From Rhizomicrobium sp. (GTDB taxonomy: Bacteria > Pseudomonadota > Alphaproteobacteria > Micropepsales > Micropepsaceae): a DNA stretch of 64,000 nucleotides. The position numbers and the translations under genes are program-made. A model generated the notes under the pieces. That model had not been told where the DNA came from and did no database searches. It worked only from the letters and a program-made list of their open reading frames with translations. The stretch spans positions 157,205 through 221,204 of the forward strand of contig DATCAT010000014.1 of the NCBI GenBank assembly GCA_036512455.1, read 5' to 3'. The stretch's first letter is position 1. Every line of letters starts with the position of its first letter. Shown here piece by piece: positions 35,104 through 44,475 of this stretch.

Positions 35104-36324
35104 TCAGGTTTTTCCGGCGGTCTGCCCAAGCCGCAGGGCTTCCAGTCGGCGGTAGCTCTCGGCCAGATGACGGTCCACCGCGGTCCGCATCGCAGCCGTC
35201 GTCGCCCGCTGCTTGGAGATTGAATCGGGGGCGAATGTCTCGCTGGGGGATTTCGCGTTGTAGCGCGCTTTTTCCGCCATGACGTCGTGCTCGGATGCGC
35301 TGTAGGCGACGCCGAAATGCGGCAATATGGCCGTCGCCAGCGCCTCCGGCAGCTGGCGGTAATTGACCAGCAGCCCGTTGCCCTTGGGAAACGCCTCCAG
35401 CACGGCATCGCAGATCTTTGCCAGCACGCGCGCGCAATAGTCTTCGTCCGGCACGCCGCCCGGCAATTGCAGATCGTAAAACGGCGGCGGGAAAAATTCC
35501 GGGACCATCTGCGTGCCGCGTTGCCATGCCTGCGAGACCAGCACTTCGAGCGGGTCGCGATAGAGAAACACCCAGGGCACGGACGGGAAGGCTCGCCGGA
35601 ACCAGGGCAGCGCCAGCGTGTGCCAGCTGTCCAGCTTGACGAAATAGTGTCTCTCGCCGCCGCCGCGCATTTGGCCGAAGGCCGCGATCATCGCCGTCAG
35701 GAGCGCGGTATTCCTCTCATCGTTTCGGACGCGGCAGAGTTGCACAACGGCGTCGATCGGGCTTGCCTCGGAGACGACGATGTTCTGCGGCAGGGCGCCG
35801 AGCATCTGGGCAGCCAGCGTCGAGCCGCAGCGCGACATGTGAAAAATGAAGCCGCTCGGCTGCAACACCGGCAACTCATGCGACCATCGCGCGAGATCCG
35901 GCAGCGGCGTGCGGAAGCGAAACAGCCGGTTGAATGGCCGGCGCAAGATCTGCCGGATCGAGTCTTCATAGAACGGTTCGCTCAGGCGCCGGTCGCCGAA
36001 ATACGCCCAATCGACGGCAAGCCGATCGCCTTGCCCGAACATCTGGATCGGAAGCCAGCCCTTTTGCAGCGGTGAGGGGGCGGCCAGGGGTGCCGCCACG
36101 AGGCGCTCCAGGCCCAAGGGATCGGGGCGCAAGAACGGCGTCAAATCGTCCGCTGCCAGGGCGATGGCGCGGGCCCGCGCCGCAGCGACCGTCCGTTCGA
36201 CGAATTGCGCAATGTCGTCAATCGTCCCCAGGGCGGCTTGCAGTGCGCCGTCGTTCAGGACGAGGACGCGAAAGCGATCCAGCTCGTGTCTTGCGCCGTT
36301 CGCCCCGTCCGCCACCATTTGCAT
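35104..36324 (-). CDS. Sulfotransferase-like P-loop protein
   Basis: FIFHMSRCGSTLA, FVKLDSW, FLYRDPLEVLVS. Confidence 0.75.
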   Translation of the reverse strand: MQMVADGANGARHELDRFRVLVLNDGALQAALGTIDDIAQFVERTVAAARARAIALAADDLTPFLRPDPLGLERLVAAPLAAPSPLQKGWLPIQMFGQGDRLAVDWAYFGDRRLSEPFYEDSIRQILRRPFNRLFRFRTPLPDLARWSHELPVLQPSGFIFHMSRCGSTLAAQMLGALPQNIVVSEASPIDAVVQLCRVRNDERNTALLTAMIAAFGQMRGGGERHYFVKLDSWHTLALPWFRRAFPSVPWVFLYRDPLEVLVSQAWQRGTQMVPEFFPPPFYDLQLPGGVPDEDYCARVLAKICDAVLEAFPKGNGLLVNYRQLPEALATAILPHFGVAYSASEHDVMAEKARYNAKSPSETFAPDSISKQRATTAAMRTAVDRHLAESYRRLEALRLGQTAGKT

Positions 36325-36409
36325 CGTTCTCAGGGCCGCCTGCCGCGCAGCCTAAGGGCGAAGCAAAGCGCAGATCAATGGCGTGGCCGGGCCGATCCGG
36401 CCCCGGCCA

Positions 36410-37741
36410 TTACGGCCGGTAGGTCAGCTGCAAGCCGGCGACGTTGACATAGGACTGGGTCGTGCCGGTCAGCGTGCCGCGCAGCGCCGCGCCCGGGATG
36501 GCCGGATTGAGCGCGACGTCCGTCTTCAGGTTGAACAGCCGCGAGGCCGTGACGTTCAGGTCCATGCTGCTGCTCAGGCGGCAGCGTACGCCCGCCGACA
36601 GCCAGATGCGGTCGGCGTCGGGAATGCGCGGCTCGCGCGTCGCGTCGGGCACGGGGCTTTGGTCGTAGGCGGCGCCGGCGCGAAACGCGAGGGATTGGCT
36701 GGCGCGATATTCCAGGCCGACTGAACCGAACAGCGTGTTGCGCCAGTGCGTCGTCGTCACGTCGTTGGGCTGCAACGGATTTGCCGCGATGACGGTGAGC
36801 TGGCGAAAGCGGCTCCAATGGGTCCAGTCCAGTTCCACCATGCCCGACCAGTTGCTGGAGAACTCGTTGCGCGCGCCGAACTCGACCATATCCGGCATGG
36901 TCAGCGGCGTCGTCTGGCGCGTGTCGGTGAACAGGCCCGTCACGGCGCGGATGGTGGCGCCGACGCCGGTGGCGTCCAGCGTGAAGGTCAGCGGCCCCTT
37001 CAGGTCGTGCTGCAGCGACGAGCGATAGGAGAGGCCCAAGGTCAGGCTGTCGCTGGGCCTGGCCATCACGCCGGCGGTGTAGCCGAACGTCCAGCTCTTG
37101 CCGCCGAGACGCGCGAAGCTGTCCTGCCCGCCGGGCACGGAGCCGGGGATGCCGTTCAGCGCCCCCAACGTGCCGGTGTCGATGGCGCTGGTCAGCGTGC
37201 CTTGCGCGTACTCGACCTGCAGGCCGGCACCGAAGGTGAGGCTTGGGCTCAGCTGATAGGAAATCGTCGGCGTGGCGTTGATCGTCAGGAGTTCGGTCTT
37301 CTGCGCGTCGTACCGTCCGGCCCAGGTCGCGGGATAGTCGGTTCGCAGGCCCCAGGGCGCGGAGATCTCCAGCCCGACGGCGATGCGGTCGGACAACCGA
37401 TGGCGAAAACCGAAGGCCGGAACCAGCGCGTCGCTGATGAAGCCGCTCGGCGTCAAACTTCCGCCGGTCGGATTGCCGGCCGAGGTCGTCGCCGATGCAT
37501 AGGTGCCCTTCGAGCCGGGCAGGATCGCGACCATGCTGATCGAAAAGTCCGTGTCCATGACGCCGGCCAGCGAGGCGGGATTGTAGGCCAGATAGCTCGC
37601 GTCGCTGCTGGTCGCGGCGGCGCCGGCATAGGCCGCGGCCATCGCGTCGGCACTGTGCTCCTTGAGGCCGTAACCGGCGCCGAGAGCGGGCGATGCCCCC
37701 AGGGCGAACAGGCCCAGGAAAACGAACGCGGTCCGGCGCAT
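36410..37741 (-). CDS. fadL: OmpP1/FadL/TodX outer-membrane hydrophobic-molecule channel
   Basis: Signal peptide, GYGLKEHSA hatch region, AYNPASL, YDQSPV..RIPDADRIWLSAG. Confidence 0.85.
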   Translation of the reverse strand: MRRTAFVFLGLFALGASPALGAGYGLKEHSADAMAAAYAGAAATSSDASYLAYNPASLAGVMDTDFSISMVAILPGSKGTYASATTSAGNPTGGSLTPSGFISDALVPAFGFRHRLSDRIAVGLEISAPWGLRTDYPATWAGRYDAQKTELLTINATPTISYQLSPSLTFGAGLQVEYAQGTLTSAIDTGTLGALNGIPGSVPGGQDSFARLGGKSWTFGYTAGVMARPSDSLTLGLSYRSSLQHDLKGPLTFTLDATGVGATIRAVTGLFTDTRQTTPLTMPDMVEFGARNEFSSNWSGMVELDWTHWSRFRQLTVIAANPLQPNDVTTTHWRNTLFGSVGLEYRASQSLAFRAGAAYDQSPVPDATREPRIPDADRIWLSAGVRCRLSSSMDLNVTASRLFNLKTDVALNPAIPGAALRGTLTGTTQSYVNVAGLQLTYRP

Positions 37742-37818
37742 GGTGAAATTCCTTTTCGGTATCGCAGAGCAGATCATATCGCTTGATCGTCCAACTCATT
37801 GAAATTGCGTGAAACTGC

Positions 37819-37834
37819 GTAAATTCCCGTTAAC
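37819..37834 (+). promoter_or_regulatory. CtrA-like box GTAA-N7-TTAAC (one mismatch)
   Basis: Lies 78 bp upstream of the kinase ATG; consensus is TTAA-N7-TTAAC. Confidence 0.45.
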
Positions 37835-37912
37835 CTTCGCCGCTATGCAATTATTTACTCGGGTAAGGCGATGATGCGGCGGGGAAATTGTTAGGGTTCT
37901 CTGGCCATCCAG

Positions 37913-39346
<1,434 letters not shown>

Positions 39347-39354
39347 GGCCCGCA

Positions 39355-40800
39355 TCAGTTCTTGCGCACGAACAGCATTCTGACGCGGCCCGTCCGTTCG
39401 GTTTCGGTCCACGCCCTGGCGGCGTTCAGGCCCTCGGCCCATCCGATCATGTCCGCGTCGTTGCGATATTGCAGCGTCCAGTCGGCGATGTATTCCATCG
39501 GCCAATAGTTGCTGAGCGGGCATTCGTTCATGTTGCCGATGATGAGCAAGCCGCCCGGCATCAACAGGTCGAACAGCCGCTTCACCAGCGCCTTGGCGCG
39601 ATGATCGGTGAGGTAGTCGAGCAGGCCGACCGAATAGACCAGATCTTGCGGTGGCAGGCCGGCGAGGCCCTCTGTGCCGCGCAGGATGTCGGTGAAGGAC
39701 AGGTTCAGCCCCTGCACCTTGATGCGGCCGTCCGAGTTCAGGACATAGGGATAGGTCGTCTCATGCGCGTAGAGCAGGGCGACTTCTTCCTGGTCGATCA
39801 GCGAGAACTCGACGCGGTGGCCCGACGTGCTGTGGCTGCTGAGATAGGCCTGCACCTCGCGCGCCGGGCCGCTGCCCAGGCTGGCGATGCGCGCCGGACG
39901 GTCATGACCGCGCTCGCGCACGACGTCGCCGATATGGGTGCGGACCACTTCCATGCGCGTGCGAATGCATTCGGCCACTTCCAGGCCGACCCGATGCATC
40001 AGCATCTCGTAGGCGTCGCCGCCCAGCCGCTCCCAGTCATAGACCTGGTTCATGATCTCGAAGTCGCCGGGATAGCCCAGCGGCTTGGCGTAGGAGCGGT
40101 CCCAGATCGCGCCCTTGCGCAGTTCGGGCGTCAGGACGAGCTCGGTATACTCCTTGGCGGCTTCGCGCACGTCGCGGTCGCCGGTGAACGCCAGGGTCAG
40201 ATCGTTGCCGGTCCGCCACAGCGAGCGCCATTGCTGGATCAGGCGCGGCTCGCAGGTCTCGAACGCCTCGACCTGGTCGAGGCCGTGGTGGAATTCGTTC
40301 GCGACCGCCGAATTGGACTCCAGCACCACGCGGTAGGAGCGTAGCAGCTTGAGGACATCGGCGCAGAAGGCGCGATATTCGATCGGCACTAGCTGGGCGA
40401 ATTCCTGCGTGAAGGCCGGCGAGCGCGCCGCGATCTGTGCCTGGGTGTTGCGCGTCAAGAGCTTGTCGAACTCGACGAAGCGGTCGACGAAGTTGAAAGC
40501 GATCTTGGATCCGAACACCGTGCTTTCGGCCCGGCAGACGCGCGCCGAACTTTCGAAGATCGGCAATCCCGATTGCTGGATGCTAAGCGGCACCGTCTCG
40601 CCGACTTCCGGAAGATCGTCATGCGACGTCTTCGACAGCGCCGACAAGCCGCCCAGACTGATGTCATGCAAACGGTACGCTGTGGCACGCACGCGAACGC
40701 GCGGCGCCAGACTCGGAAACATTCTGCGGGCGTCGTAGCGCGGCGGGCGAAAACGGATTTGACGGCCGGTCGAGCCTTTTAACTCTTCATACGCAAGCAT
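39355..40800 (-). CDS. Class I SAM methyltransferase with N-terminal PilZ-like domain (PhcB-like)
   Basis: DISLGG (DxSxxG); KPLGYPGDFEIMN; SLGSGPARE; DLVYSVGLLDYL; GGLLIIGN. Start taken at MLAYEELKG. Confidence 0.75.
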   Translation of the reverse strand: MLAYEELKGSTGRQIRFRPPRYDARRMFPSLAPRVRVRATAYRLHDISLGGLSALSKTSHDDLPEVGETVPLSIQQSGLPIFESSARVCRAESTVFGSKIAFNFVDRFVEFDKLLTRNTQAQIAARSPAFTQEFAQLVPIEYRAFCADVLKLLRSYRVVLESNSAVANEFHHGLDQVEAFETCEPRLIQQWRSLWRTGNDLTLAFTGDRDVREAAKEYTELVLTPELRKGAIWDRSYAKPLGYPGDFEIMNQVYDWERLGGDAYEMLMHRVGLEVAECIRTRMEVVRTHIGDVVRERGHDRPARIASLGSGPAREVQAYLSSHSTSGHRVEFSLIDQEEVALLYAHETTYPYVLNSDGRIKVQGLNLSFTDILRGTEGLAGLPPQDLVYSVGLLDYLTDHRAKALVKRLFDLLMPGGLLIIGNMNECPLSNYWPMEYIADWTLQYRNDADMIGWAEGLNAARAWTETERTGRVRMLFVRKN

Positions 40801-40927
40801 GACGGTACCCCATGGAGAACAACCAAAAACATTCCCTCCTGAAGGCACCCCAGGGACGCCCGTTGGAGGACGCCATCACCCAAACCCCTGCGCCGATCGT
40901 TGAGTCGTCCGGTCGCAGCGAAACAAA

Positions 40928-40943
40928 GTTAACAAACCATTAA
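40928..40943 (-). promoter_or_regulatory. CtrA box TTAA-N7-TTAAC (perfect match)
   Basis: Minus strand reads TTAATGGTTTGTTAAC, upstream of the methyltransferase. A near-match lies at 41115-41130. Confidence 0.65.
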
Positions 40944-41266
40944 TAGCTGAAAGAGTCAGACGAATCAATTGGATGCGGCCCCCCTGTTTGAGGGGTGGGG
41001 TAGGGTTAATCGTTAATGCTGCCCAAAAACACGCCAAGCGATTCAAATCCTTCTGCAATTTGAATCCCTTAACGCCGCCGCCGCGAAGTTCCCGGGCGGC
41101 CAAACGGCCTATCGTTAAGAGAACGTAAACATCATGGAGCGGTGCGTATTCGATAAGAGCGAGCGTGCCTATTCGATAAAATACCTACGATTTTCACCGA
41201 TCAGCGTTAGCGATTTTGGCGCAGCATCGACGCGTCCGAGAACGGACGCCGAAAAAAGGGCTGGCC

Positions 41267-41563
41267 ATGTTTCTGTATCGCGTCAAAGTCGAGGAACTCG
41301 ACTCCCTGCGTCTGCTGACCTTGAAAAACGATCTGACGCGCAGCGAGGAAAGTCTGCGCGCGCAGTGCCCCATTCGCGAGATGAGCCTGGTGAGCGACGG
41401 CAGCAATCGCCGCGAGCTCGACATCTATCTGGCGCTCGACGATTTCATCGACAGCGATCAGTTGCAGCGGCTGGTGGGCGAACTGAATTCGCTGCTCGAC
41501 AGCGACGCGAAGTCGAACCGCGCGCACCCGGCGCGCGTCAGCTCGGAACTGATTCACATCTGA
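41267..41563 (+). CDS. Hypothetical protein
   Basis: 98-aa ORF with host-like codon usage; no family recognised. Confidence 0.55.
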   Translation: MFLYRVKVEELDSLRLLTLKNDLTRSEESLRAQCPIREMSLVSDGSNRRELDIYLALDDFIDSDQLQRLVGELNSLLDSDAKSNRAHPARVSSELIHI

Positions 41564-41571
41564 CCGGGTAG

Positions 41572-42390
41572 TCAGCCATCGTAGAAGAACGGCTGGTGCA
41601 ATCCGATCAGCGTGCGCTCGCGGTCGGTCTGTGCCCGCTCAATCGCTTCGGGCGACAGGTGATTGATCTCTTCGGTGGTGAAGATGCGCTGCGCCAGGTC
41701 GCGGCGGCCATAGTGACACTGCAGGAAAAAGCGCCCGCGCCCCGGTTGCGCCGGCGTGCCGCGATGCCAGGCATCCGACACGAACAGGATCGCATCGCCC
41801 GCCTTGGCCGGCAGGTAGACCGGCTTCTTGTTCTCGAAGGTGAGGTCGCTATCGCCCAGGCGTTCCTTCGGCGGCAGGCGTCCGGAGCGATGCGAACCGG
41901 GCAGCACGGCCGTCGGTCCGGCTTCCATCGGGCAGTCCCAGATGAAGATGTGAACCCCGATGGCGAATATCGGATAGGGGATCGCGTCCGGCCACGGCAC
42001 GTTCTCGGGCCGCGGCACGTGCGGTCCGGCATCGACATGCCACATGCCGCCCTGATGACCGGGCGCATTGCGCCAGGCGGTGTTGGCGATGACGTGGCAG
42101 TCCTCGCCCAGCAGCGGCTCGATGACGTCCAGCAGGGCGCGCGACGCGATCGCCTTCTGCGCCAGGGCCGAGCGGTTGAGCATGCCGTAGCGAAATTCAT
42201 TGCGTGCGTCGCGCTCGCGGTCGGTGCCGGAGGTTTCGAAGATGGCGGCGATCTCCGCGCCCAGCGCCGCGGTGCTTTGCGCATCCAGCACGCCGCGGAT
42301 CAGCGCGTAGCCTTCGCGCTCGAGCTGCTCGGAGGCGGCCGGTGCGGCGCCCCGCAACACTCTCAGATTGCCGTGTCTGCGCGTCAGCAT
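41572..42390 (-). CDS. Phytanoyl-CoA dioxygenase (PhyH) family 2OG oxygenase
   Basis: WHVDAG (HxD), GPTAVLPGSH, AGDAILF..DAWHRG. Confidence 0.88.
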   Translation of the reverse strand: MLTRRHGNLRVLRGAAPAASEQLEREGYALIRGVLDAQSTAALGAEIAAIFETSGTDRERDARNEFRYGMLNRSALAQKAIASRALLDVIEPLLGEDCHVIANTAWRNAPGHQGGMWHVDAGPHVPRPENVPWPDAIPYPIFAIGVHIFIWDCPMEAGPTAVLPGSHRSGRLPPKERLGDSDLTFENKKPVYLPAKAGDAILFVSDAWHRGTPAQPGRGRFFLQCHYGRRDLAQRIFTTEEINHLSPEAIERAQTDRERTLIGLHQPFFYDG

Positions 42391-42484
42391 ACGCGCATGC
42401 TAAGCGTCCGCAGCGGTACGGAGCAATGACTTCGCGGCTGCAGCAAACGAAAAAAGACAATCGAGACGGAGGGCCCGGGGCGCT

Positions 42485-42510
42485 GTAACCTTTACCGAGG
42501 ATCACGCGAA
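42485..42510 (+). promoter_or_regulatory. ECF16/SigF-type promoter GTAACC-N16-CGAA (autoregulatory)
   Basis: Directly upstream of the sigma gene; the same motif recurs at 43724 and 49861. Confidence 0.75.
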
Positions 42511-42525
42511 CTTGATGGCGAAGGC

Positions 42526-43071
42526 TTGGTCGAAGCGGAAGCAGAACTGAAGGCGCTGATGGTCCGCGCGCTGGGCGGCGACGGCGCCGCCTATGCCGCG
42601 CTGCTGCGCCGGCTGGGCGGCTATCTGCGGGCCTATTACCGCCGCCGCCTCGGCAACGCCGCCGATGCGGAGGACATGCTGCAGGAGACGCTGATCGCCA
42701 TGCATACGCGCCGCGCCACCTACGATCCCTCTCGGCCTTTCACGGCCTGGGTGCATGCGATCGCGCGCTACAAGCTGATCGATCATTTCCGCCGCAGCAA
42801 GCGCCGGGCCGAAGATCCGCTCGACGATCCCGATCTGTTGTTTTCGTCGGCTGACGCCAATGCCGCCGAAGCCCAGCTCGATGTCGACCGGCTGCTCGGC
42901 CGCCTGGCGCCGAAGACGCAAGCGCTGATCCGCGACGTGAAGATCGAAGGCCTGTCGACCGCCGAAGCCGCGGCGCGGCACAACATGTCGGAATCGGCGG
43001 TGAAGGTCGGCGTCCATCGCGGCTTGAAAAGTCTCGGCGCCAAGCTTGGGGAGGGGGAAGGCGAGCGATGA
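42526..43071 (+). CDS. ECF sigma factor (ECF16, SigF/EcfF-like)
   Basis: DAEDMLQETLIAMH, FTAWVHAIARYKLIDH, SESAVKVGVHRGLK; paired with NrsF. Confidence 0.9.
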   Translation: MVEAEAELKALMVRALGGDGAAYAALLRRLGGYLRAYYRRRLGNAADAEDMLQETLIAMHTRRATYDPSRPFTAWVHAIARYKLIDHFRRSKRRAEDPLDDPDLLFSSADANAAEAQLDVDRLLGRLAPKTQALIRDVKIEGLSTAEAAARHNMSESAVKVGVHRGLKSLGAKLGEGEGER

Positions 43072-43709
43072 AGACCGACGATCTCATCGCGGCTCTGTCC
43101 GCCGGGCTCGATCCCGTTCCCAGGCGCGCGGCCGCGGGCCGCCTGGCGCTGGGCCTGGCGCTCGGCGCGGCCGTCTCGGCGACGCTTATGTTGCTGTGGC
43201 TCGGCGTTCGCGCCGATCTGATGCCCGCCATGATGACCGGCCCGTTCTGGATGAAGTTCGCCTACGCCTTCAGTGTCGCCGTGCTCGGCTTCGGCCTGAT
43301 CGACCGGTTGGCGCGGCCCGACGGGGAGGGCGGCGTGTTGGGGCCCATGATCCTGGCACCGCTCGGCGTGATGATCGCACTCGCCGTCTGGCAGCTGATC
43401 GGCCTGTCGCATGCCGAGCGCATGGTGCTGATGATGGGCAGTTCCGCTCAGGTCTGCGCCCGCAACATCGCGGTTCTGTCGCTTCCGATCTTCATCGGCC
43501 TGTTGTGGAGCCTGCGGGCGCTCGCGCCCACCCGCCTGACGCTCGCCGGCGCGGTCGCCGGCGGCCTCGCGGGCGCCGCCGGAACTTTCATCTACGCCTT
43601 TCACTGCACCGAGAACGCGGCGCCGTTCGTGGCGATCTGGTATACGCTCGGCATCGCCGCGATGGGCCTGCTCGGCGCCTTGCTGGGCCGGCTGATGCTG
43701 CGCTGGTGA
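43068..43709 (+). CDS. nrsF: NrsF/DUF1109 membrane anti-sigma factor
   Basis: MKTDDLIAAL start, about 6 TM helices, two Cys (QVCARNI, AFHCTE), FVAIWY. Confidence 0.88.
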   Translation: MKTDDLIAALSAGLDPVPRRAAAGRLALGLALGAAVSATLMLLWLGVRADLMPAMMTGPFWMKFAYAFSVAVLGFGLIDRLARPDGEGGVLGPMILAPLGVMIALAVWQLIGLSHAERMVLMMGSSAQVCARNIAVLSLPIFIGLLWSLRALAPTRLTLAGAVAGGLAGAAGTFIYAFHCTENAAPFVAIWYTLGIAAMGLLGALLGRLMLRW

Positions 43710-43723
43710 TCTTCACATTGCTT

Positions 43724-43749
43724 GTAACCGTATAGTCTCGGCCATCGAA
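43724..43749 (+). promoter_or_regulatory. ECF16-type promoter GTAACC-N16-CGAA upstream of msrA
   Basis: Exact motif match. Confidence 0.75.
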
Positions 43750-43776
43750 TAACGGTCGAGGAACTGGAGACGTCCC

Positions 43777-44475
43777 ATGCTTCGCAGCCTTCGCAATGTG
43801 GTTCTGGCGGCCGGCATCGCCGCCGCCTGCAGCCTGTCCACCGCCTGCGCCGACGCCATCGACAAGGCGGTTCCGGCGGCCACGGTCGACGCGCCCAAGG
43901 CACAGGCCCCGGCCAGCGAGACCGCCGTCCTCGCCGGCGGCTGTTTCTGGGGCATGCAGGGCGTGTTCGAGCATGTCCGCGGCGTGACCAAGGTCGTGGC
44001 CGGCTATTCGGGCGGCGCCAAGGCGACGGCGATCTATGAGCTGGTCGGCACCGAGACCACCGGCCATGCCGAGTCGGTGCAAATCACCTTCGATCCGCGT
44101 GTGGTTTCCTATGGCGAGATTCTGCGGGTCTATTTTTCGGTGGCGCATGACCCCACCGAGCTGGATCGCCAGGGCCCCGACAGCGGCAACAGCTACCGCT
44201 CGGAAATCTTCTTCGCCTCGCCGATGCAGGAGAAGATCGCGCGCGCCTATGTCGCCCAGCTGACCGCGGCGCACACCTTTGCCGCACCGATCGTGACCCG
44301 GATCGAGAAGGTGACGGGCTTCTACGCCGCCGAGGGCTATCACCAGGACTACCTGTTCCATAACCCGACCGCGGGCTACATCGTCTACAACGATCTGCCC
44401 AAAATCGATGCACTCAAGCGCGTCCTGCCGGTCCTGTATCGCGACAAGCCGGTGCTGTTGACCGACCATAGCTGA
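43777..44475 (+). CDS. msrA: Exported peptide methionine-S-sulfoxide reductase
   Basis: Signal peptide; AGGCFWG, GHAESV, AEGYHQDY. Confidence 0.95.
   Translation: MLRSLRNVVLAAGIAAACSLSTACADAIDKAVPAATVDAPKAQAPASETAVLAGGCFWGMQGVFEHVRGVTKVVAGYSGGAKATAIYELVGTETTGHAESVQITFDPRVVSYGEILRVYFSVAHDPTELDRQGPDSGNSYRSEIFFASPMQEKIARAYVAQLTAAHTFAAPIVTRIEKVTGFYAAEGYHQDYLFHNPTAGYIVYNDLPKIDALKRVLPVLYRDKPVLLTDHS

Follow-up and report, generated by a model that had tools for sequence, protein, structure and literature searches.

Does the stretch analysed here (64,000 nt from contig DATCAT010000014.1 of Rhizomicrobium sp., hereafter the window) encode a lipid-signalling module related to the Phc system? The question is raised by three adjacent genes at 36410-40800, coding for a FadL-family channel, a multi-helix membrane histidine kinase and a convergent S-adenosylmethionine (SAM)-dependent methyltransferase, which an original prediction from the sequence had read as a synthase-sensor-channel unit. 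In the quorum-sensing system Phc, present in Ralstonia and Cupriavidus (phcBSRQ plus PhcA), PhcB makes 3-hydroxymyristic or 3-hydroxypalmitic acid methyl ester (3-OH MAME/PAME), which is sensed by the membrane kinase PhcS. Our analysis was computational and centred on the three-gene locus, with coordinates given for the whole 64-kb window. All three genes were found where they had been predicted, and the reading that we favour, by a modest margin over even chances, is a two-gene synthase-sensor module with common ancestry with PhcB and PhcS and an accessory FadL channel, working by the mechanism proposed below. As judged from sequence comparisons, this module probably makes and senses a lipid-like signal. 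The locus contains the following features:

36410-37777, minus strand: FadL/TodX-family outer-membrane channel (455-residue open reading frame, ORF; Pfam Toluene_X)
37913-39346, plus strand: histidine kinase with six transmembrane helices, HisKA and HATPase_c (hydropathy, Pfam)
37913-38587, plus strand: membrane sensor domain of the kinase, residues 1-225, with about six transmembrane helices and very short loops
38618-39346, plus strand: kinase core, HisKA plus HATPase_c (Pfam, 1.8e-20 and 3.4e-28, respectively)
39355-40800, minus strand: PilZ-helical-lid-methyltransferase protein of 481 residues (homologue length, start MLAYEEL)
39358-39894, minus strand: class I SAM methyltransferase Rossmann domain, residues 303-481 (AlphaFold2 model, Foldseek, invariant residues)
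39910-40470, minus strand: helical lid/substrate domain, residues 111-297, with KPLGYPGD (AlphaFold2 model, alignment)
40486-40800, minus strand: N-terminal PilZ domain, residues 1-105 (Foldseek, motifs)

A longer ORF for the methyltransferase starts with GTG (39355-40848, minus strand), and relatives of 481 residues cover 97% of it; because the homologues have 481 residues and start with MLAYEEL, we consider that the gene spans 39355-40800. The kinase and methyltransferase genes are convergent, with 8 nt separating their stop codons.

Sequence and profile comparisons show that the methyltransferase is genuinely homologous to PhcB. Reference sequences were obtained by searching 400 Pseudomonadota genomes with the family profile; in four non-alphaproteobacterial genomes, the methyltransferase was followed by a co-directional membrane kinase, a receiver-kinase and a receiver, which is the phcBSRQ order. 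An exact-sequence look-up assigned three of these four loci to Ralstonia mannitolilytica, Cupriavidus and Massilia, and the neighbours of these methyltransferases are called PhcS, PhcR and PhcQ in the source records. The LqsR-like PhcX described as a neighbour of the phc cluster (PMC10653808) is present at the R. mannitolilytica locus too. In BLASTP, residues 216-451 of the methyltransferase aligned with R. mannitolilytica PhcB (27% identity over 240 amino acids, E 7e-28), pairing KPLGYPGDF with KPLGYAGDY, and the family profile matched the R. mannitolilytica genome with an E value of 4.8e-63 over model positions 101-475. The hhalign comparison of the family with PhcB covered 403 columns (residues 72-477 versus 53-460; probability 100%, E 4e-51), and the homologous part comprises the latter half of the N-terminal barrel along with the lid and the Rossmann domain. 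Moreover, many homologues carry the Joint Genome Institute label 'extracellular factor (EF) 3-hydroxypalmitic acid methyl ester biosynthesis protein', which is the KEGG name of PhcB. The resemblance to PhcB noted in the original prediction is confirmed.

The family is large, with about 3,587 clusters at 50% identity for E <= 0.001 and 218 for E <= 1e-30, and most of the best-matching clusters have the full length of ca. 480 amino acids. In a FastTree phylogeny the PhcB clade formed a very long branch inside the family, a placement subject to long-branch caveats. No Ralstonia appeared among the names found for ten cluster representatives picked by length, and a tblastn search of plasmids returned only relatives with the methyltransferase domain alone. 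Likewise, no NCBIfam family matched the methyltransferase, and a PDB sequence search with the whole protein gave no match. Across an alignment of 112 diverse representatives, the motif KPLGYPGD (residues 239-246, 40063-40086) is invariant in the family, with K239, P240, G242, Y243, G245 and D246 unchanged or nearly so and KPLGYAGD in PhcB, as are the Rossmann-domain residues G311, E315, D336 and D395-Y396; both the KPLGY(P/A)GD and the SAM motifs are common to PhcB and this protein. The longer KPLGYPGDF that had been noticed earlier is indeed there, at residues 239-247.

The AlphaFold2 model of the whole methyltransferase, with a predicted local distance difference test (pLDDT) score of 90.5, consists of a barrel at residues 34-104, followed by a helical lid at 111-297 and a Rossmann fold at 303-480. 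Foldseek matched this model in the PDB with 3ocj, an uncharacterised Bordetella protein, and with small-molecule and natural-product methyltransferases. These best structural matches, being 3ocj and natural-product C- and O-methyltransferases of varied substrates, fit an alternative in which the enzyme methylates a non-lipid small molecule or a protein, for instance the kinase or its regulator, under gating by cyclic di-GMP (c-di-GMP), the likeness to PhcB being one of fold family only. It would also suit the identity to PhcB, which is only 20-27%, the locus L016 (G029), where a class III adenylate/guanylate cyclase lies directly upstream of the methyltransferase in place of the kinase, and the precedent of MapZ-CheR, where a PilZ protein and a methyltransferase cooperate on protein substrates (bioRxiv 10.1101/814665). 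Nevertheless, we regard a non-lipid substrate as improbable, given that the helical lid, of the small-molecule type, and the KPLGYxGD motif are common specifically to this protein and PhcB within an alignment of some 400 columns, that lipid-related neighbours recur in independent arrangements, and that the sensor of the partner kinase lies entirely within the membrane, its loops being minimal.

The N-terminal domain adopts, according to its structural model, the PilZ fold, and its ligand-binding motifs are conserved. When the barrel was modelled by itself (pLDDT 84), its top ca. 40 Foldseek matches in the PDB were all PilZ domains, many of them bound to c-di-GMP and including MotI, YcgR, PlzD, PA0012, Alg44, BcsA, MapZ and MrkH. 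Many homologues have a precomputed PF07238 match, and the comparison of an N-terminal profile with PDB sequences gave only an insignificant match to YcgR (E 0.6). The motifs comprise R18, R21-YDA-R25 and D46-I-S48-L-G-G51 (DISLGG, residues 46-51), encoded at 40648-40749. Among the 112 representatives, R18 is conserved in 100, R21 in 105, D or N at position 46 in 100, S48 in 86 and G51 in 101; the position of R25 is R or K in 58. The arginine pair kept across the family is therefore R18/R21, with RxxR spacing, and a literal RxxxR (R21-YDA-R25) occurs 21 residues ahead of DxSxxG. The original prediction had noticed a PilZ-like segment with DxSxxG, which the structure search and the conservation of the motif bear out; it was mistaken in considering RxxxR absent.

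Compared with canonical PilZ receptors (YcgR, PlzD/VCA0042, MotI/DgrA, Alg44, BcsA), the domain has the same beta-barrel fold (query-normalised TM-score 0.51-0.62), a conserved [D/N]hSxxG and an arginine-rich N-terminal loop at the canonical distance. It differs in its N-terminal fusion to a small-molecule methyltransferase, in its RxxR arginines (R18/R21) with a half-conserved R25, and in a Pfam score just under the threshold. These motifs and fold, together with five GGDEF genes in the genome, lead us to infer that the PilZ domain binds c-di-GMP. From the alignments, most of the full-length sequences that we examined have kept the PilZ motifs and PhcB has lost them: the N-terminus of PhcB can be aligned with no more than the latter half of the barrel and is devoid of these motifs. 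An equivalence of R21 with R22 of PhcB, which is altered in the adaptive R22C mutation (PMC6989110), was considered and rejected: the first 50 residues of PhcB do not align to the PilZ loop, and R22 sits just before a strand. No description of a fusion of PilZ to a small-molecule methyltransferase was found in the literature, including a survey of PilZ proteins (10.1101/814665).

The kinase has about six hydrophobic helices at residues 46-205, as judged by hydropathy, and an H-box around His246, SHELRTPLNAIIGFS, as quoted in the original prediction, with the core HELRTPLN. Its overall identity to PhcS is 22%, as between any two histidine kinases. We compared a profile of the sensor region alone (residues 1-234, 59 homologues) with the N-termini of PhcS proteins. 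The hhalign alignment was collinear, with a probability of 87.8%, an E value of 3e-6 and a score of 45.8, whereas, among the controls, the reversed profile scored 18.7, column shuffles no more than 21.6 and block shuffles no more than 30.3. The sensor hidden Markov model (HMM) also matched R. mannitolilytica PhcS with an E value of 4e-8, and other PhcS sequences more weakly, as well as the kinases beside distant methyltransferases (6e-80, 2e-49, 6e-30 and 3.5e-19). All 12,990 genome ORFs with 150 amino acids or more were searched, and this kinase was the only match, no other falling below E = 2. These comparisons give moderate support to the sensor domain being a remote homologue of that of PhcS; the synthase adjoins a kinase with a putatively related six-helix sensor, as it does in Phc.

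The original prediction of a PhcS-like kinase therefore holds for the sensor, but not for the core, nor for the downstream partners PhcR and PhcQ. Its assignment to the PleC/DivJ type, acting on DivK, is not supported: all NCBIfam equivalog models were far below their cut-offs (DivJ, 217 bits versus 1000; PdhS, 200 versus 2000), and, as the DivJ score is level with those for TorS, BarA and LuxQ, the label has no diagnostic value; the H-box is not diagnostic either and nothing points to DivK. Pfam detected no receiver domain in the kinase, and there is no response-regulator or receiver gene in the locus. A MASE8 domain, precomputed for the kinase of a relative, was also discarded, because a direct scan gave none in the window kinase and an E value of 0.5 in one relative.

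Gene order was examined in 80 loci from species-representative genomes, with a methyltransferase identity of 52-93%; the contig scan gave only close relatives from the Micropepsaceae, these loci are kin, and the counts overstate their independence. The kinase is situated convergently downstream of the methyltransferase in 64 of the 71 loci with room for it, with a median stop-to-stop gap of 7 nt (20 nt or less in 46/65, and overlaps of up to 29 nt). FadL is the divergent neighbour of the kinase in 42 of 61 loci, and the other 19 lack it at that position. The three genes are thus syntenic in most relatives, as the original prediction had supposed, and such a grouping far exceeds what chance would give. 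Of 24 sampled genomes of the genus, exactly the same five carry both the methyltransferase and the sensor domain, indicating that the pair is inherited and lost together.

That the three genes are unrelated neighbours held by genus-level synteny is largely refuted, and we consider it very improbable. A part of the adjacency count does come from kin, because a block from MsrA, an ECF (extracytoplasmic function) sigma factor, NrsF and PhyH to FadL is collinear in the closest relatives. However, methyltransferase and kinase are still found together at 29-36% identity, in other families and next to other flanking genes. In the locus L015 (G033), from an alphaproteobacterium of another family, the methyltransferase (36% identity) and the kinase (41%) are convergent, with an MMPL lipid transporter upstream of the methyltransferase, and in metagenomic relatives with 29-34% identity both genes are tail-to-tail. 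Also, in loci where 0.6-5 kb are inserted between methyltransferase and kinase, FadL remains with the kinase, and in L133, with a 29%-identical methyltransferase, FadL recurs in a different gene order: a divergent kinase, then the methyltransferase, with PF10118 and FadL downstream.

In another genome of the same genus, locus L017 (G012:C4:148782-150227) contains the methyltransferase in four frame-shifted pieces and the kinase in two, reflecting either a pseudogene or assembly indel errors, this genome being 52% complete and in 6 contigs. A single-domain response regulator is found just upstream of the broken kinase.

The FadL protein matches Pfam Toluene_X with 282 bits (cut-off 29.7; E 7.8e-84) and has a signal peptide, MRRTAFVFLGLFALGASPALG, from which its probable true start is M13, at 37741. 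It is not the equivalog of Escherichia coli FadL (168.7 bits versus an NCBIfam cut-off of 585), and it is the sole PF03349 gene of the genome. Within the genus, FadL occurs in eight of 24 genomes (seven above the Pfam cut-off), four of which lack the module, and two module-bearing genomes lack FadL. A channel strictly dedicated to the module was thus rejected, as it is a single genome copy and its presence in the genus does not track the module. FadL is a frequent, not an obligatory, partner, and of the predicted synthase-sensor-channel unit it is the coupling of methyltransferase and kinase that stands, the channel being optional.

The surroundings of the module in relatives have a lipid-related character, with FadL in those 42 of 61 loci, membrane fatty-acid desaturases (PF00487) in 15 loci, situated after FadL or upstream of the kinase, and PF10118 or MMPL genes in others. 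Loci L043, L047, L054, L057 and L071-L091 have one or two PF00487 desaturases, often along with a PF10118 'metal-dependent hydrolase'. The desaturases and PF10118 proteins are candidates to tailor the signal or turn it over.

These neighbours (FadL, desaturases and MMPL) also fit our main rival explanation, a cell-autonomous lipid or envelope circuit without cell-to-cell communication. The methyltransferase would modify the endogenous pool of membrane lipids or fatty acids, for example by esterifying or detoxifying free fatty acids or hydroxy fatty acids that enter through FadL, and the kinase would monitor the lipid state or the product and adjust expression. FadL being the only fatty-acid channel of the genome and occurring without the module in relatives, and the lack of a dedicated response regulator or LysR-type output nearby, are in line with such a circuit, and inputs through PilZ and CtrA would suit physiological or cell-cycle control as well as quorum sensing. 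On the other hand, the sole characterised member of the family, PhcB with PhcS, is a diffusible-signal system; the strict co-inheritance of an enzyme with a dedicated sensor that is unique in the genome is a hallmark of synthase-receptor pairs; and the module is accessory (5/24 genomes of the genus), unlike core envelope homeostasis. We therefore deem the cell-autonomous circuit unlikely, though it is the alternative to be taken most seriously.

Sequences upstream of the methyltransferase suggest how the synthase might be controlled. Two regulatory features are of interest:

40928-40968, minus strand: conserved promoter block of the methyltransferase (upstream alignment)
37819-37834, plus strand: degenerate CtrA-like box gTAA-N7-TTAAC, 94 nt before the kinase ATG (sequence reading)

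The promoter block has a -35-like TTGATT (40968-40963), a 17-nt spacer and a -10-like TATTAA (40945-40940). The latter overlaps with a perfect CtrA-type box, TTAATGGTTTGTTAAC (40943-40928, minus strand), situated 128 nt upstream of the methyltransferase ATG. This box is the single occurrence of TTAA-N7-TTAAC in the window, where 0.01 would be expected. Of 76 loci, 47 have a perfect box, for the most part between -103 and -146, with fixed half-sites and a variable spacer; the upstream alignment revealed a conserved island, TTGAY-17 nt-TATTAA, in which the box begins within the -10-like hexamer, with extra TTAAC half-sites near. The degenerate box is located in the 135-bp divergent intergenic region between FadL and the kinase; of 63 loci, 28 have a box with at most one mismatch ahead of the kinase, mostly between -83 and -95, and none is perfect. 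The genome codes for a CtrA orthologue with 80% identity to a Caulobacter CtrA query sequence, and the next-best match had 39%. Since the box overlaps the -10 element, its position suggests a putative repression of the methyltransferase by CtrA. The link with the cell cycle that had been predicted through DivK is unsupported as to its route, and the conserved CtrA-type box provides other evidence for such a link. Two tandem TTAAC half-sites (GCATTAACGATTAACC), conserved within the clade of at least 84% identity, occur at 41000-41030 (minus strand), ca. 230 nt upstream of the methyltransferase.

A scan of the locus for consensus sigma-70 promoters detected none, and an Rfam scan of 36000-42600 gave no match. 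A terminator scan identified no hairpin between the convergent kinase and methyltransferase genes, so that their transcripts must overlap or collide, and control by antisense or interference could arise in this way. Two terminator-like hairpins were located within the 5' end of the FadL ORF (37723-37741), and shuffled sequences gave more.

In the synthase-sensor module that we favour, the methyltransferase would use SAM to methylate a hydrophobic, probably fatty-acid-derived carboxylate, yielding a diffusible ester. Binding of c-di-GMP to the PilZ domain may gate this activity allosterically, and CtrA would control, probably repressing, transcription of the gene through the box over the -10 element. 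The signal would partition into membranes, where it could be read by the membrane domain of the kinase, and FadL might ease its passage across the outer membrane, as with long-chain acyl-homoserine lactones (AHLs) in Sinorhizobium. The output of the kinase would be an unlinked response regulator, other than PhcR or PhcQ.

Several observations weigh against this module. For the PilZ-bearing members of the family the chemistry is predicted by homology, and with so low an identity to PhcB (20-27%) and such a long PhcB branch, conservation of the substrate is uncertain. The Pfam PilZ model scores 20.7 bits on this protein, below its cut-off of 22.5. Scores such as that for the sensor homology, which is moderate (88%), can be inflated by transmembrane composition; by sequence, the kinase core is of a subtype other than that of PhcS. 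A search of the genome for PhcR and PhcQ retrieved no orthologue, the best match to PhcQ (27 bits) reflecting generic receiver similarity. Because the first TTAA of the CtrA-type box coincides with the -10-like hexamer, part of its conservation could be promoter conservation. Lastly, FadL may be a general fatty-acid channel merely often adjacent to the kinase, because it is the sole copy of the genome, is present without the module and is absent from two genomes with it.

Set beside Phc itself, the module differs in more than the loss of the PilZ c-di-GMP motifs from PhcB. Its genes are convergent with nearly abutting stop codons, in contrast to the co-directional operon of Phc; the HisKA core is HELRTPLN, versus HEINNPVN in PhcS; there is no PhcR, PhcQ or PhcX; a FadL gene is attached and a CtrA-type box is found in the promoter. 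Additionally, phc clusters have been reported as restricted to the Betaproteobacteria (PMC10653808), whereas the host here is a soil alphaproteobacterium. No paper was found on PilZ-PhcB fusions or on phc-like modules in the Alphaproteobacteria.

A FadL-family channel has been tied to a hydrophobic signal in another alphaproteobacterium, Sinorhizobium, where long-chain AHLs are modulated by FadL (PMC9938287). In that system the fadL gene is not linked to those for synthase and receptor, and the signalling molecule is an AHL, whereas here FadL is divergent from the kinase. The Lqs and Cqs systems (LqsA/LqsS, CqsA/CqsS) are alike by logic alone, in that a cytoplasmic synthase of a lipophilic signal is coupled to a membrane sensor kinase of about six helices, but their alpha-hydroxyketone synthase is dependent on pyridoxal phosphate and unrelated.

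Outside Ralstonia and its betaproteobacterial relatives, Phc signalling is not known, and the pair described here belongs to a far wider family, most members of which retain, by their motifs, an apparently functional c-di-GMP receptor domain on the synthase; in the Micropepsaceae, a FadL channel and a CtrA-type promoter element are connected with the pair. A bolder interpretation, which we put forward tentatively and hold to be less likely than its negation, is that PhcB and PhcS are one degenerate offshoot of a large, hitherto undescribed family of c-di-GMP-gated synthase-sensor pairs, and that in this organism production of a lipid ester is licensed jointly by c-di-GMP and CtrA, with FadL as a dedicated outer-membrane gate. 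Population-level signalling would in that case be tied to the state of the cell cycle or of development. If the biochemistry is borne out, the module would directly link an intracellular second messenger to the synthesis of an extracellular signal, and a new class of lipid-ester signals would exist in Alphaproteobacteria that are abundant in soil and freshwater.

Beyond the methyltransferase there is a further conserved gene:

41267-41563, plus strand: small ORF of ca. 98 amino acids from MFLYRVK (MFLYRVKVEELD...CPIREMS...LDIYLALDDFI...SSELIHI), recognised by conservation, with no Pfam family

This ORF is divergent from the methyltransferase, with which it has in common the promoter region containing the CtrA box, and convergent with PhyH. 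Its conservation, at the protein level and with in-frame indels, was seen in 17 loci, all from the close clade. The PhyH, ECF sigma factor/NrsF and MsrA genes (41572-44475) were considered as parts of the module and discarded, as they are collinear only at a methyltransferase identity of at least 74%, which corresponds to ordinary synteny. On the other side of the locus, a Sulfotransfer_3-family gene (35104-36324, minus strand), part of the adjoining cluster, is situated 85 nt downstream of FadL and on the same strand, and a GNAT plus tail-collar triplet also follows FadL in some relatives.

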